Virus record (IMG/VR): IMGVR_UViG_2711768016_000013 | Source: a virus | Taxonomy: Duplodnaviria > Heunggongvirae > Uroviricota > Caudoviricetes | DNA: 48,174 bases | Strand: one strand, 5' to 3' | Shown: positions 31,429 through 48,174 of the stretch, piece after piece | How positions within the stretch are numbered: the stretch's first letter is position 1 | How the letters are laid out: each line of letters begins with the position of its first letter | Program-made: the position numbers and the translations under genes | Notes under the pieces: model-generated | What the model was told of the DNA's origin: nothing | The model's database searches: none | The model's input: only the letters and a program-made list of their open reading frames with translations

Positions 31429-31824
31429 ATGATCACTTACGTGACCTGTGATGACGTTGATAATGCGTTTGGGAACGCCTGGACGAGTGAGAACGCTAAA
31501 AATAAAGCTGTTTTAATGGCTAATGCCTGGCTTAATGGCTTCAACCTGAAAATTAACCCATCCCGTATTCCGGAAGAGGTAAAACTTGCGGGAGCATATG
31601 CAGCCAGAATTGCCTCATTCGGTAAGTTGTTTCAGCAGAAAAATGATTCTGGCGTTGTTATCAGTAAAGCCGTGTCGGCTGACGGGGTCAGTGTATCGAA
31701 ATCATTTTCTGAGTTGCCAGCAAACAGCACTGCATTGCTTGAACCCGATTTACAGCTTGCGATAGCACTGCTGAAACCGTACGGACTTAGTCGCTCACAA
31801 GTCAGGGTTGTGAGGGGGGGATAA
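31429..31824 (+). CDS. Head-tail connector / head completion protein (putative)
   Basis: 131-aa ORF in canonical position, translationally coupled to downstream genes. Confidence 0.55.
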   Translation: MITYVTCDDVDNAFGNAWTSENAKNKAVLMANAWLNGFNLKINPSRIPEEVKLAGAYAARIASFGKLFQQKNDSGVVISKAVSADGVSVSKSFSELPANSTALLEPDLQLAIALLKPYGLSRSQVRVVRGG

Positions 31825-32977: not shown

Positions 32978-33003
32978 CGCAATTAATGACATAGGAGGCT
33001 CCT

Positions 33004-33966
33004 GTGAGTTCAGGTGCAAAGGTTATCTCGGCATTTATCCGGGAGACGGTTGCAGGCACTACGCCAGCAAGTGGTGACTGGAGTTTATTAAAACGCACAA
33101 GCTGGGGAGTAAAACCCACCCAGAATAAAGGCGAAAATAATGAGATTGGTGGCTCCCGGATGGCTCAGGGGGCGACGCCTGGCACTGTGGATGTCGGCGG
33201 TGATGTTGGTACCAAATTTCGCTGGGGTCAACATGATGATTTTCTTGCATCCTGTTTCGGCGCGGAATGGTCAGGCGATTCTCTGACAATGGGGAATGAG
33301 CGAATAACATTTTCTCTGGCGACCTATGCGTCCGATGTCGGAATTGCCTCTGTCGTCAGAGGAGCGCAGGTTGGCTCATGGAAAATGCAGATCCCTAACG
33401 ACGGCGATATTACAGCGACCGTAACCTTTGCCGGACTGGACTGGGAATCAAAGGCCGATGATACGAATTTTATCAAAGGCGAACCTGTGGATAGTGCAGG
33501 AAAGCTACGTTATTCGTTTAAGGAGGTTTCAGCAGTAAGCCTGAATGGTGTTGCCGGAGGTAACGGTTTTTGTATCGACAGTTTTGATATTCAGTTCGAT
33601 AACAAACTCCAGACACAGCGTTGTATCGGGACTGGCTCGCCTTATGCAGGAGCAAATATTCCGACTACTTTTACACCGTCCGGTACGGTGACGCTTTCAT
33701 GGTCTAAAGCCGCGTGGGAAATCTGGAGTAAAACACTGACTGGAGAAACAGTTCCGTTCAGCTTCACGCTTTCGAATGGAGAGGGGGCATACACTTTCAG
33801 TTTCCCGAAGGTTCAGGTGTCAGGTGAATGGCCTGATGGGGGTAATAGCGACATTATCCAGGTTCAATTGAGCATTACCGCAGCAGATGAAGCACCTACG
33901 ATAACCAGAAAAAAAAATTCCCCGGCTGCCGTGATCGCAAAAGCCAGTGCTGAGGCGATTAGTTGA
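33004..33966 (+). CDS. Major tail (tube) protein
   Basis: GTG start with AGGAGG RBS; 320 aa; upstream of chaperone and tape measure genes. Confidence 0.7.
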   Translation: MSSGAKVISAFIRETVAGTTPASGDWSLLKRTSWGVKPTQNKGENNEIGGSRMAQGATPGTVDVGGDVGTKFRWGQHDDFLASCFGAEWSGDSLTMGNERITFSLATYASDVGIASVVRGAQVGSWKMQIPNDGDITATVTFAGLDWESKADDTNFIKGEPVDSAGKLRYSFKEVSAVSLNGVAGGNGFCIDSFDIQFDNKLQTQRCIGTGSPYAGANIPTTFTPSGTVTLSWSKAAWEIWSKTLTGETVPFSFTLSNGEGAYTFSFPKVQVSGEWPDGGNSDIIQVQLSITAADEAPTITRKKNSPAAVIAKASAEAIS

Positions 33967-34014
33967 TTTTCCGTTATTCCTCCTGTGGTACTGCCCTACA
34001 GGGGGACGCATTGA

Positions 34015-34476
34015 ATGAGGTTATGGATGTTTATTCTTAATCAGAAAATTATCATTGGTGGAGAACGCTGGTTTACGCCAATGAAGGACTTAAAACCTGT
34101 AGACGGGTTAAAACTGTTGGTGGCAAGCAGCGATAACGATCAGTATCGCTCCCGTAATGCATTAATCCGTCGCCACATTGAGAAAATGGATGCCAGTTTG
34201 CACGTCGGAACGAAGGAGTTTGATATTTCAAAGGTTTCCGAGGTGGATTCTGTTGATGATTTACTCATTGATAATGCCGCTCGTTATCTGCTGAAAGACT
34301 GGAAAGGGGTTGGTGAACTGGTTAATGGTGTTGAGGTTGCACTGGAATATACGGCAGAACGAGGGATCGCGCTGCTTAAGCAGAATCCAGAGTTGTACTG
34401 GCAGATCCTTGCAGAAGCAGCCAGCATCGCCCAGGGTAAAGAGCAGCAGAAGCAGGATACGATAAAAAAGCCATAG
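34015..34476 (+). CDS. Tail assembly chaperone (lambda G-like)
   Basis: Position between major tail and tape measure genes; ends 4 nt after slippery heptamer A AAA AAG. Confidence 0.7.
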   Translation: MRLWMFILNQKIIIGGERWFTPMKDLKPVDGLKLLVASSDNDQYRSRNALIRRHIEKMDASLHVGTKEFDISKVSEVDSVDDLLIDNAARYLLKDWKGVGELVNGVEVALEYTAERGIALLKQNPELYWQILAEAASIAQGKEQQKQDTIKKP

Positions 34477-34784
34477 CTGCCCAGCGGTGGTTATCGGAGT
34501 TCGGGGGAGAAAGGGGGGAAAAGGCAAGATGGAAGCGAGAAAAACTCAGGTTGCCACCGATACCGGAACCAGAAATAGACCCGGTGCTTAAGGAGTTGTT
34601 GTACGCCTATTCGGTAATATCCCGTGCCCGACGTTATGCTGGAATGGCTGGGGTGCCTTTGCCTTTATCTCTGACAGAGATAAATGAATATTTAGCCACT
34701 CATCCGGTATTGATTGAGCGCGATGAATTTGAAGCAGTGATCTTTGCACTGGATGACCAGTATTTTCAGGAGCAGTGTGTGTAG
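34015..34784 (+). CDS. Tail assembly chaperone frameshift fusion (lambda GT-like) via programmed -1 frameshift at 34464-34470
   Basis: A AAA AAG in frame of ORF1; -1 frame is open from the slip site to the stop at 34784. Confidence 0.55.
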
Positions 34785-34904
34785 TTGTTAATTACGTACA
34801 CTCTGTTACAGAGATGTGATGGTGTCTTTAATTAAATCGATGATGCTCCTGGAGAAAAGCATTGCGTGGCCTCGTAATCGCTATATCTACTATTATGTCG
34901 CCTG

Positions 34905-34930
34905 AAACCCACTTCGCGGTGGGTTTTTTG
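34905..34930 (+). terminator. Hairpin plus T-run between chaperone and tape measure genes
   Basis: AAACCCAC-TTCGCG-GTGGGTTT followed by TTTG. Confidence 0.45.
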
Positions 34931-34949
34931 TTGTCAGGAGTTTTAATAA

Positions 34950-37900
34950 ATGGCAGAGCAAACCTCGCGTCTCGCAATAATTATTGATAGCACTGGAGCG
35001 AAAAATAATGCTGACAATCTGACCTCCTCATTAGTCAAAATGACGCAGGCTGGGGAAACTGCTGCAAATAGCGCAGGGAAAGTGACTAAGGCAACAGAAG
35101 ATGAGAAGAACGCGCTCGCAAAATTAAAAGCAGCTATTGATCCAGTTGGTGCCGCAATTGATACTGTCGGTCGACGCTATTCTGAATTAAAGAAATTTTT
35201 CGATAAAGGGCTTATTGATAAAGAAGAATATGAATTTCTTGTCCGTAAACTTAATGAAACCACAGAGGAATTGAGCGGGGTTGCGCAAGCGCAGAGAGAA
35301 GCCGAGAAGGCCGGAAAACTTGCTGCCGCCCAGCAGGAAGCGCAGGCTCAGGCCTTTCAAAGAATGCTGGACAAGATCGACCCTCTGGCTGCGGCGCTAA
35401 GAAATCTTGAACAACAGCATGATGAACTTAATGCTGCGTTTGCATCCGGGAAAATAAATGGTTCTCAGTTTGAGAATTATAGCCGAAAAATACAGGAAAC
35501 ACGGCGAGAGCTTACCGGAGAGGCTCAGGCAGAGCGAGAAGCAGCAAAAGCGCATGATGAACAGGTTGTTGCTTTGCAACGTCTGATTGCTCAACTTGAT
35601 CCTGTCGGAACTGCTTTTAATCGTCTGGTAGAACAACAGAAACAGCTCAATGAAGCAAAAGCTAAGGGGATGCTTTCTCCTGAAATGTATGAGGAGCTTT
35701 CTGGAAAACTTCGTGCTATGCGGAGTGAGCTTGAGGTTACTCAATCACAATTAAGCAAAACCGGAATGTCGGCAAAACAAACGGCTTTTGCTATGCGCAT
35801 GTTGCCTGTACAAATGACGGATATTGTTGTTGGGTTGTCCACTGGTCAGTCGCCATTTATGGTGTTAATGCAGCAGGGCGGCCAGCTAAAAGATATGTTC
35901 GGTGGGATTGGCCCGGCGATCAAAGGTGTAGGTTCTTATGTGCTGGGATTAATTAATCCTTTTACCCTGGCCGCAGCAGCCGTTGGGGTCTTAGGACTGG
36001 CTTACTATAAAGGCTCTCAGGAGCAGGACGAATTTAATAAATCTCTTATTCTTACCGGAAATCAGTTGGGGACAACCAGCGGGCAATTGGGCGATATAGC
36101 TCAACGTGCCGGGAATGCGGCTGATTCGACAACTGGTGCTGCGGCGGCAGTATTAAATCAGCTTGTGCGTTCGGGAAAGGTAGCGAGCAGTTCGCTGGAG
36201 CAAGTGACGACAGCGATAGTAAAAACGAGCGAAGTAACAGGAATATCAACCGAACAACTGGTTAATGACTTCAATGAAATTGCAAAGGATCCTGTCAGTG
36301 CCATATCAAAACTTAATGATCAGTACCATTTTCTGACACTTGCGACTTATAACCAGATTAAGGCGCTACAGGATGAAGGGAACCAGCAGGAGGCCGCCCG
36401 CATTGCGACAGAAGAATACTCATCCTCAATGATCCAGCGCACCAACCAGATTAAAGAAAATCTTGGTTATCTTGAGACTGCATGGAAAGCTGTCGCAGAC
36501 TCCGCAAAATGGGCATGGGATTCCATGCTGGATATTGGCCGTGAGGCCTCCCTTGATCAAAAAATCTCAGATGTTCTCCGTCAAATTGATGAAATAGAAA
36601 AAAATACCCGACCCGGAGTTTTCGGGTTAGGTGGCATTGGAGATGGCGGAGCTCAAAATAAAAGGCTGGCACGATTAAAGCAGCAATTGGGCGTACTTCA
36701 AGCAGAAAAAATTGCTCAGGACGTACTAAATTCATCAATAAACGATTACAACAAGCGACAACAGGAAGGAATTGAACTCAGACAGAGAGCAGATGCCTTT
36801 TCAAAACAATATCAGACCCGGGAGCAGCAGAGAGCTAGTGAACTTGCAAAACTGGAAAAGCTAAAGAATCAGTATTCAAAGGAAGAATATAATAATCTTA
36901 TCGCTCAAATAAATGAGCGTTATAAAGATCCAAAGCAACCAAAGGCGAAAGGTTATTCTGATGATGCAGCCCAACGAATGATTGATCATCTGAATCAACA
37001 GAATGCGTTACTAAGTTCACAAGCTGAGTTGACCGTTAAATTAAGTTCCTCTGAACAGGAACTGGTTAAGTGGCGTCAGCGGATTGCCGACCTAGAGTCA
37101 CGACCATCATCGAAATTAACCCAGGATCAGAAATCGCTTCTCTTACACCGGGAAGAAATAACCACGTTGATGGAGAAAAATGTTGCGATTGAAAAAAATA
37201 ACAGGCTAATCAAGGAATCCGCCGAAATAACAGCATGGCGTGATTCATTGCAGGCTTCGATTGATAATCGTCAGCAGGGGTATGATATTCAGATTGCTGG
37301 TTATGGGGTTGGCGATAAAAATCAGCAACGCCAGCAGGAATTACTGCGGATTGAACATGGATATAACAATCAGCGTCTGCAACTTGAACGTGACTATGCA
37401 GATAAATCCCGTGGAATGTCAGATCATGTTTTTCAAGAGAAAATGCAGGCTCTGAATGATGCTCTGGAACGGGAAAAAGAAATTGTCAGACAGAAAAACG
37501 AGCAGCTCGATATTCAGGCAGGAGACTGGGTTAGTGGTGCCTCCCAGGGATTCAATAACTGGCTGGATGACACTAAGGATATCAGTGAGCAGATAAAATC
37601 AACCACGACTCAGATGTTTGATGGGATGACCGATGCGCTGGGTGATTTTGTCACGACAGGCAAGGCAAATTTTCGTTCTTTCGCTACTTCCGTGATTTCG
37701 GATCTTAGTCGAATAGCATTAAAGGCTTCAATTACTGGGATTTTCGACAGCATTAGTAACAGTTCTTCTGGGGGGATTTTAGGAACTATCGGGAGTGCTA
37801 TTAGTAAATTTATTCCGAATGCAAAGGGCGGTGTTTATGAGTCTCCGTCATTGAGCACGTATTCGAACGGTATTTATGATTCCCCGCAATTTTTTGCTTT

Positions 37901-38183
37901 TGCAAAAGGGGCTGGTGTTTTTGGTGAGGCTGGACCGGAAGCCATTATGCCATTAACACGAACTTCCGATGGTTCTCTTGGTGTCAGAGCTATTAATAGT
38001 AAAAGTGGTAATGGAGGCGGAGATATTACCTATGCCCCTGTATACCAAATCACTATTCAAAATGACGGCCAGAATGGAGAGATTGGCCCTCAGGCAATAA
38101 AAGCACTTATGGGGATGGTTGATCAGCGGGTGCAGGGCAATCTGTTAAATATGCGACGTGATGGGGGAATGTTAAGTGGCTAA
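34950..38183 (+). CDS. Tail tape measure protein
   Basis: 1077 aa, coiled-coil-rich N-terminal two thirds, hydrophobic central segment. Confidence 0.9.
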
Positions 38184-47543: not shown

Positions 47544-48174
47544 TGGCATTCAGAATGAGTGAACAACCACGGACCATAAAAATTTATAATCTGCTGGCCG
47601 GAACTAATGAATTTATTGGTGAAGGTGATGCATATATTCCGCCTCATACAGGTCTGCCANNNNNNNNNNNNNNNNNNNNNNNNNNNNNNNNNNNNNNNNN
47701 NNNNNNNNNNNNNNNNNNNNNNNNNNNNNNNNNNNNNNNNNNNNNNNNNNNNNNNNNNNNNNNNNNNNNNNNNNNNNNNNNNNNNNNNNNNNNNNNNNNN
47801 NNNNNNNNNNNNNNNNNNNNNNNNNNNNNNNNNNNNNNNNNNNNNNNNNNNNNNNNNNNNNNNNNNNNNNNNNNNNNNNNNNNNNNNNNNNNNNNNNNNN
47901 NNNNNNNNNNNNNNNNNNNNNNNNCCCCGGAGGGGGGCATTTCATTATTTTTCTAATCGTTACTGGTGAGAAGGCGGAAGAAACAAAAAACAACCTGATG
48001 CAGGTAGCCAGTGAGCATATTGCGCCGCTTCAGGATGCTGCAGATCTGGAAATTGCAACGGAGGAAGAAATCTCGTTGCTGGAAGCATGGAAAAAGTATC
48101 GGGTATTGCTGAACCGTGTTGATACGTCAACTGCACCTGATATTGAGTGGCCTACGAACCCTGTCAGGGAGTAA
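47543..48174 (+). CDS. tfaR: Tail fiber assembly protein (Tfa-like), interrupted by an N-run gap
   Basis: Starts by ATGA overlap with stf stop; C-terminal reading after the gap ends at TAA 48172-48174; gap length breaks the frame. Confidence 0.55.
47660..47924. other. Assembly gap (265 N)
   Basis: Run of n characters in the sequence. Confidence 1.

Follow-up and report, generated by a model that had tools for sequence, protein, structure and literature searches.

A probable programmed -1 ribosomal frameshift site in the tail assembly chaperone gene of Rac-type siphophages and prophages

The window analysed here is the whole stretch of 48,174 nucleotides of a Caudoviricetes virus (IMG/VR record IMGVR_UViG_2711768016_000013), and all features described below lie on its + strand. 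The locus corresponds to an intact Rac prophage that carries trkG, ynaK, pinR and tfaR and adjoins ompN/uspF. In its tail gene region, the gene for the tail tube (major tail) protein (33004..33966; Phage_tube_2, E 9.4e-32) stands directly 5' of a gene that we call G (34027..34476), which is followed by a second open frame, T (34470..34784). Directly 3' of this pair lies the tape measure protein gene (34950..38183, 1077 aa; TMP_2 with E 3.9e-81, Tape_meas_lam_C and TMP_4), and 3' of the latter are lambda-like M, L, K, I and J genes. The order of tube gene, G, T and tape measure gene is repeated in relatives. Salmonella phage SPF_0923 matches the interval 33000-35000 at 100% identity, a series of induced E. 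coli phages matches it at 98%, and a 951-nt region occurs in 1074 of the 5426 complete E. coli genomes. The RefSeq name of the upstream ORF (G) is ydaY, and E. coli K-12 retains a 5'-truncated ydaY, the slip site described below, the entire T frame and the start of the tape measure gene (ynaA). Close records list 'YdaY' or a 'hypothetical protein', followed by a short downstream 'hypothetical protein' with varying starts, and an annotated frameshift is absent from all close records examined. Likewise, we found no paper in the searchable literature library in which ydaY or Rac is tied to a tail chaperone or to frameshifting.

The protein encoded by G has 149 aa when read from the ATG at 34027 (ORF list), which is the point where the N-termini of homologues align and which is preceded by a GAGG 6 nt upstream; an alternative start at ATG 34015 would lead to 153 aa. 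Direct reading of the 3' end of G gives the 0-frame codons GAT ACG ATA AAA AAG CCA TAG. The slippery heptamer A AAA AAG (34464..34470) is part of this sequence, a check of sequence and frame places it in X XXY YYZ phase, and it is the only in-phase XXXYYYZ heptamer in G. A preliminary description of this DNA had singled out the heptamer as in frame close to the stop of a G-like gene, which is correct, but had given the distance as 4 nt; the actual spacer is 3 nt (CCA), and the 0-frame stop TAG (34474..34476) is one codon past the heptamer. An all-frame scan revealed 15 stops in the -1 frame within G, from 34038 to 34437, and no further stop from 34440 until the TAG at 34782-34784. The -1 frame hence opens 24 nt 5' of the heptamer, and the heptamer falls within the overlap of the two frames, which covers 11 codons (34440-34473). 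The whole open -1 run has 114 codons. After the slip there are 104 sense codons, the first being GCC at 34470, which agrees with the approximately 105 codons to 34784 described before; with the terminal TAG they make up the T extension (34470..34784). Translation of the fusion predicts a GT protein of 252 aa, or of 256 aa from ATG 34015. The -1 frame has no possible start before the TTG at 34551, and the first 27 codons of T (34470..34550) are thus without one. As had been stated, the ORF list shows the downstream part only as a separate 77-aa ORF with a TTG start (34551-34784). Gene order, heptamer phase and the open -1 frame are all those of the G/GT arrangement that the preliminary description had recognised.

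The chance of 114 open codons is ~3e-6 at the stop density of this frame within G (15 stops in ~142 codons) and ~0.004 at a generic density of 3 stops per 64 codons. As a window-wide control we collected the in-phase XXXYYYZ heptamers in all stop-to-stop ORFs of at least 100 codons (n=106). After these, the -1 frame stays open for a median of 9.5 codons. A AAA AAG occurs four times in this set, and a long -1 ORF follows at 34464 only (104 codons vs 8-17 codons). An A9 run in the tube gene (33909-33917) was considered as a second recoding site and discarded, as a stop is reached within 14 and 7 codons in the alternative frames and relatives lack the run.

Profile searches identify the G part as a member of PHROG 313 'Tail assembly chaperone' (E 4.9e-46, profile positions 15-149 of 258). 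The T part has a significant match to phrog_1189 (E 1.4e-36) and a weak one to the C-terminal third of PHROG 313 (positions 173-246, E 0.0097). Against Pfam PF23812 Phage_TAC_18 the T part reaches 20.7 bits (E 4.7e-4, profile positions 12-78 of 79), which falls short of the gathering cut-off of 27 bits and is suggestive of relatedness. No model of Pfam-A or NCBIfam is at threshold for G or T, and lambda-type Pfam families remain unmatched when E values up to 10 are admitted; homologues of the G part carry the precomputed Pfam label PF27119.1. A sequence search of the PDB with the fusion GT returned nothing at E up to 1. The structure predicted for the G part was unusable (pLDDT 44.9). For the T part a model with a pLDDT of 69 was obtained, for which Foldseek found no match among viral models at E up to 0.001. 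Its top match, a 'pre-tape measure chaperone' of 268 aa from Caulobacter phage CcrColossus, is weak (E 0.065, probability 0.98, TM 0.51), and the similarity of the predicted fold is only suggestive.

We scanned one genome per bacterial species (185,579 species genomes) and recovered 34 loci, corresponding to 31 distinct sequences. Homologues of the T part are found in Klebsiella, Raoultella, Citrobacter, Salmonella, Serratia, Rosenbergiella and other genera, and in nearly all relatives a homologous tube gene is located 5' of G. At the aligned slip position, NNN-AAAG is present in phase in all 34 loci (31/31 distinct sequences). The slip position reads A AAA AAG in Escherichia, Citrobacter, Providencia, Dryocola, Siccibacter, Scandinavium and one Pseudomonas, G GGA AAG in Raoultella, Pantoea, Mixta, Rosenbergiella, Tatumella and one Pseudomonas, and G GAA AAG in the remaining Pseudomonas (seven loci). 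The 0-frame residue at the slip varies from Lys to Gly, and slipperiness is kept. In the relatives the 0-frame stop is found 3 to ~80 nt past the heptamer, and the -1 frame is open from the motif throughout. At every locus with an intact G, including those of the phages Gungnir39 and Aurca01, T lies in the -1 frame with respect to G; the single exception is a short contig with a broken G ORF.

The downstream ORF could be an ordinary separate gene that uses its own start (TTG 34551, TTG 34599 or a later ATG), in which case the heptamer would be incidental. Every close record annotates it in this way, for example as 'hypothetical proteins' of 61 aa, 46 aa or 41 aa, and an AAGGAG is located at 34590-34595, directly 5' of TTG TTG. 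However, the annotated T starts vary between records, and the T homologues, which are called as separate ORFs of 60-138 aa, have inconsistent N-termini. The AAGGAG is only 0-3 nt away from the TTGs, and its K-E codons are not conserved in relatives. Conservation and coding pattern of T reach up to the heptamer, 27 codons 5' of the first possible start. Alignments of T, both by tblastn and at the protein level, begin at post-slip residues 1-4, T is conserved from residue 1, and the residues after the slip share the motif A-[IL]-x-A-Q-x-W-L-x-E-F-G-G-E-x-G-E-K-x-x-W. Pairwise differences at the three codon positions are 0.38/0.35/0.60 in the 27 start-less codons and 0.35/0.30/0.64 in the rest of T. 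The stretch 34470-34550 is thus conserved with a coding-type pattern and has no start available, hence it should be translated in the -1 frame; a coding, start-less stretch after a heptamer is the signature expected of a frameshift extension. Also the slip motif and the -1 relation, which are kept across genera, argue against a separate gene, and we regard this explanation as very unlikely. Instead, the maintenance of motif position, -1 relation and post-slip coding confirms, at the level of sequence comparison, that the slip site is under selection. The frameshift in the tail chaperone gene that had been proposed from the letters of this DNA is therefore supported by what is kept in relatives, namely the slip motif, the -1 relation and the start-less coding stretch.

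The nature of the slip motif fits known ribosomal slippage. E. coli has a single tRNA-Lys (anticodon mnm5s2UUU), which is poor on AAG and readily re-pairs with AAA after a -1 shift (PMC5009743). For A_AAA_AAG in E. coli, the values tabulated in Table S3 of PMC4066793 are 0.29% for the bare heptamer, 4.3% with the IS911 stimulator and 39% with the IS3 stimulator, and for G_GGA_AAG the same table gives 0.28%, 3.8% and 43%, respectively. These near-equal efficiencies are consistent with the swapping of the two heptamers among ydaY-type relatives. In its genome statistics, that survey reports a strong avoidance of in-phase A_AAA_AAG in E. coli genes (z -10.1), and among its frameshift motifs it accepts a bare Z_ZZN tetramer, e.g. 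A_AAG (PMC4066793), which takes in the G GAA AAG variant of Pseudomonas. The latter variant is non-canonical, and perfect re-pairing is possible for the A-site tRNA only.

A fusion of G and T might also be generated by transcriptional slippage, with RNA polymerase inserting an extra A in the A6 run. There is a homopolymeric A run at the site, and such runs can cause polymerase stuttering; the Thermus dnaX gene is cited as using A9 runs in this way (PMC3711429). Transcriptional slippage needs ~8-9 A or more (An, n > 7), however, and the run here is short of this threshold with just 6 A. Moreover, ~40% of the relatives have GGGAAAG with three A only, so that stuttering is impossible there, and the X XXY YYZ phase-lock seen at every locus is relevant to ribosomes and irrelevant to polymerase. 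Slippage at the level of transcription is thus highly improbable as an explanation for the site.

It could further be argued that the frame break is damage, a frameshift mutation or sequencing error by which a once undivided G-T gene was split in a decaying prophage. The Rac copy of E. coli K-12 is defective, homopolymer runs attract errors, and in one E. coli strain, P0068, G and T are fused in frame. However, 1074 E. coli genomes share the identical -1 break at the same motif, and so do phages that were isolated or induced (SPF_0923, the vB_EcoS series, Klebsiella phages and Erwinia phage Gungnir39) and bacteria of genera as remote as Pseudomonas. The P0068 fusion is a one-off that arose from a deletion 5' of the heptamer. 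Its sequence, ...AEAGYDKKAIAAQRWL..., has the same junction frame as the predicted GT. Damage to a formerly continuous gene is accordingly extremely improbable, and a -1 shift by the ribosome is the reading that we follow here.

We searched for stimulatory elements on both sides of the heptamer. A G-rich tract downstream of it, GGGGGAGAAAGGGGGGAAAAGG, had been pointed out in the preliminary description. The tract is located at 34503..34524 as described, but a role in the frameshift signal did not hold: it is 32 nt off the heptamer, and it encodes GGERGEK in the T frame, of which the GGExGEK codons and not the nucleotides are conserved. RNA structure prediction downstream of the heptamer, which had been suggested as a check, returned nothing conserved or unusually stable. 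The fold of the 130 nt downstream of the heptamer is no better than that of shuffled sequences (z +0.59, single sequence), RNAalifold with 23 relatives gives 0 consensus pairs downstream of the heptamer, and folds of 45, 60 and 90 nt at the individual loci of relatives have a mean z of -0.2 to -0.5. An Rfam scan gave no match other than a sub-threshold one on the terminator hairpin. A local hairpin at 34471-34497 (-11.8 kcal/mol, z -0.14) has a spacer of 0 to the heptamer and is not conserved, and no conserved hairpin or pseudoknot of the dnaX or IS3 type is found in relatives 5-9 nt past the heptamer. On the 5' side, AGGA (34454..34457), 6 nt upstream of the heptamer, is a candidate for a weak Shine-Dalgarno-like element. 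AGGA is found at the equivalent spot in 12/30 distinct loci vs a background of ~7%, an excess that is confounded by shared ancestry and by conserved Gln-Glu/Asp codons. It is missing in the Providencia group, in the Rosenbergiella loci and in most Pseudomonas loci. The frameshift signal appears to be the heptamer alone, with A_AAG as its core, and the true efficiency of the shift may depend on further context beyond the heptamer.

A -1 frameshift at G GGA AAG has been described for the G/GT genes of lambda (Levin, Hendrix and Casjens, 1993; Xu, Hendrix and Duda, 2004, 2013, 2014; as cited in PMC5009743). As in lambda, the gene pair described here follows the major tail protein gene and precedes the tape measure gene, and a short 0-frame product is combined with a start-less -1 extension of ~100 codons. 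In both cases the heptamer is a few codons before the 0-frame stop (GGGAAAG and 15 nt to TGA in lambda) and no requirement for an RNA structure is known. Many ydaY-type relatives even carry the exact heptamer of lambda. Among the elements by which G/GT genes have been defined (Xu, Hendrix and Duda, 2004), the flanking genes, a start-less -1 ORF, an in-phase slip site and conservation are found at the locus; a fusion made at a low, fixed ratio and required for tail assembly, and binding of the tape measure protein by G and of the tube protein by T, are predicted. The present site differs from lambda in that its heptamer is A AAA AAG, the 0-frame stop is one codon away, and T and the tape measure gene are 165 nt apart, with a terminator-like hairpin in between, in contrast to the overlapping T and H of lambda. 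We detected no homology to lambda G and T, and hhalign of the family alignments gave probabilities of 0.10% and 0.22%. G and T are probable functional analogues of lambda G and T, not sequence relatives.

Other systems share aspects of the site. ECs1801 of prophage Sp9 in E. coli O157 Sakai is a tail chaperone with the sequence AGA AAA AAG TAG and a longer frameshift product, and Table S4 of the survey by Sharma et al. (2014) lists it as cluster A_AAA_AAG_25, with -1 frameshifting regarded as safely inferred (PMC4066793). It belongs to an unrelated protein family, however, and gives no BLASTP alignment with the protein described here, hence this cluster is not the present gene. Among the five prophage clusters of that survey, the ydaY-type family is absent (PMC4066793). 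A distant homologue of the T part is found in Acinetobacter phage vB_AbaS_TRS1 (TRS1_18/TRS1_19, NC_031098), with a tube gene upstream. In tblastn searches it has 39% identity over fusion residues 170-249 (E 4e-6), and 36% with T as query (E 5e-12). Its slip region is likewise A-rich (cacgAAAAAAAGcaaag), and among the related records that we found, only this one has the frameshift annotated, by means of a joined CDS. Its G part is not detectably similar, and host and genome are different. The dnaX gene of E. coli, with its products gamma and tau, has the identical heptamer and the same tRNA-Lys slippage chemistry (PMC4344849; PMC3711429). However, dnaX has an upstream Shine-Dalgarno-like element and a downstream hairpin, shifts with ~50% efficiency and makes a shorter product, while the site described here has no conserved hairpin, an inconsistent AGGA at 6 nt and a longer product.

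Taken with the family assignment and the conservation across genera, the anatomy of the site makes it highly probable that 34464-34470 is a programmed -1 ribosomal frameshift site in the tail assembly chaperone gene of a Rac-type siphophage or prophage. The majority of ribosomes would read through ATA AAA AAG CCA TAG and make the 149-aa G protein, known in databases as YdaY. In a small fraction, tRNA-Lys on AAA in the P site and on AAG in the A site would slip by -1 and re-pair to AAA AAA. The slipped ribosomes would continue with GCC ATA GCT ... and read 104 codons up to the TAG at 34782-34784, yielding the 252-aa GT with the predicted junction peptide ...QDTIKKAIAAQR or KAIAAQR. For lambda, a ratio of ~30:1 has been described, with G and GT binding to the tape measure protein and T recruiting the tube protein (PMC5009743). 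By analogy, the tape measure protein of 1077 aa would be coated by G and by the G part of GT, and the T part would bring in the tube protein. The slip would then set a fixed, low GT:G ratio that tail assembly requires, and neither protein would be expected in the virion.

It is conceivable, yet in our view rather unlikely, that the ydaY-type family reaches a lambda-like shift of a few percent without an RNA structure, through a context that has so far gone unrecognised, and that G GAA AAG in Pseudomonas works by single-tRNA slippage on A_AAG. Candidates for such a context would be the AGGA at its unusually short 6-nt spacing, the conserved nascent peptide ...Q-E-T-V-K/G-K and the nearby 0-frame stop. 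If this were true, its members would offer a natural series in which -1 frameshifting that does not depend on structure could be dissected. As a further part of this reading, the K-12 remnant, with its 5'-truncated ydaY, slip site and T frame, could still make a frameshift product in the laboratory strain.

The ydaY site is a real but ordinary case, which leaves the understanding of frameshifting and tail assembly unchanged, and its value is mainly one of annotation. The RefSeq "protein YdaY" would be the tail assembly chaperone of Rac-type phages, and the "hypothetical protein" fragments past ydaY would be the C-terminal half of a frameshift fusion. The RefSeq start of ydaY in intact prophages is an internal TTG (34117) that has been taken over from the truncated K-12 gene. 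This annotation concerns about a fifth of complete E. coli genomes as well as prophages in Klebsiella, Citrobacter, Providencia, Pantoea and Pseudomonas. The G/GT frameshift rule gains one more independent protein family, and the ydaY-type family offers a clean natural interchange of A AAA AAG and G GGA AAG. A function can also be assigned to the remnant of a y-gene in K-12.

The proposed frameshift region of the tail assembly chaperone gene is retained in the Rac remnant of E. coli K-12. The K-12 matches (H30-H38) cover query positions 126-951, corresponding to 34125-34950 of the window, with 100% identity. The remnant has kept the chaperone gene ydaY (G) except for its 5' quarter, together with an undamaged slip site, the T frame in full length, i.e. 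the -1-frame extension of G (34470-34784), and the beginning of ynaA, the tape measure gene. The list of annotated features given under the K-12 match does not include the T frame. In the reference record of phage lambda (NC_001416, 9711-10549), G and T are entered as two separate coding sequences without a joined GT product, and therefore a missing frameshift annotation in related records means little. Annotation also bears on the start of ydaY. In intact Rac prophages (L041, 20118-20477), RefSeq/PGAP places the start of 'protein YdaY' (119 aa) at an internal TTG (34117), which appears to have been taken over from the 5'-truncated K-12 gene. The N-termini of homologues and an upstream GAGG support ATG 34027 as the start codon, giving a protein of 149 aa.

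The heptamer itself varies among the loci compared. In seven Pseudomonas relatives (among L029-L036), the canonical X XXY YYZ is replaced by G GAA AAG at about position 2495-2501. Since the tRNA-Lys in the A site is the only one that can re-pair perfectly on this variant following a -1 slip, the sequence suggests slippage on the tetramer A_AAG in the Pseudomonas branch. A natural in-frame fusion of G and T was found in E. coli (P0068, NB16F79_39920, 240 aa), which arose via a deletion immediately 5' of the heptamer (...AEAGYDKKAIAAQRWL...). Judged from its sequence, this prophage would make GT as sole product and would lack free G, and by analogy with the lambda precedent its tail assembly should be blocked.

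Two further runs on the plus strand were considered. A stretch of nine A residues in the tube gene (33909-33917) gave no sign of being a recoding site: the -1 frame meets a stop after 14 codons and the +1 frame after 7, and relatives lack the run. The stretch is probably prone to errors in sequencing or replication. The sequence G GGG GGA (31815-31824) ends the gene at 31429-31824; the gene that follows lies in the -1 frame and has its own start codon, ATG 31824. The arrangement looks like an ordinary TGATG-type overlap and not like a frameshift. A row of 265 N at 47660-47924 indicates that the window derives from a scaffolded or masked assembly, and ORF and heptamer statistics overlapping this run are meaningless.

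While T and H overlap in lambda, in the window a gap of 165 nt separates the T stop (34784) from the tape measure start (34950). It holds a terminator-like hairpin on the plus strand (34904-34927, GAAACCCACTTCGCGGTGGGTTTT followed by TTGTTG; 10 pairs). A terminator would not be expected within a late tail operon, and the hairpin could tune tape measure expression.
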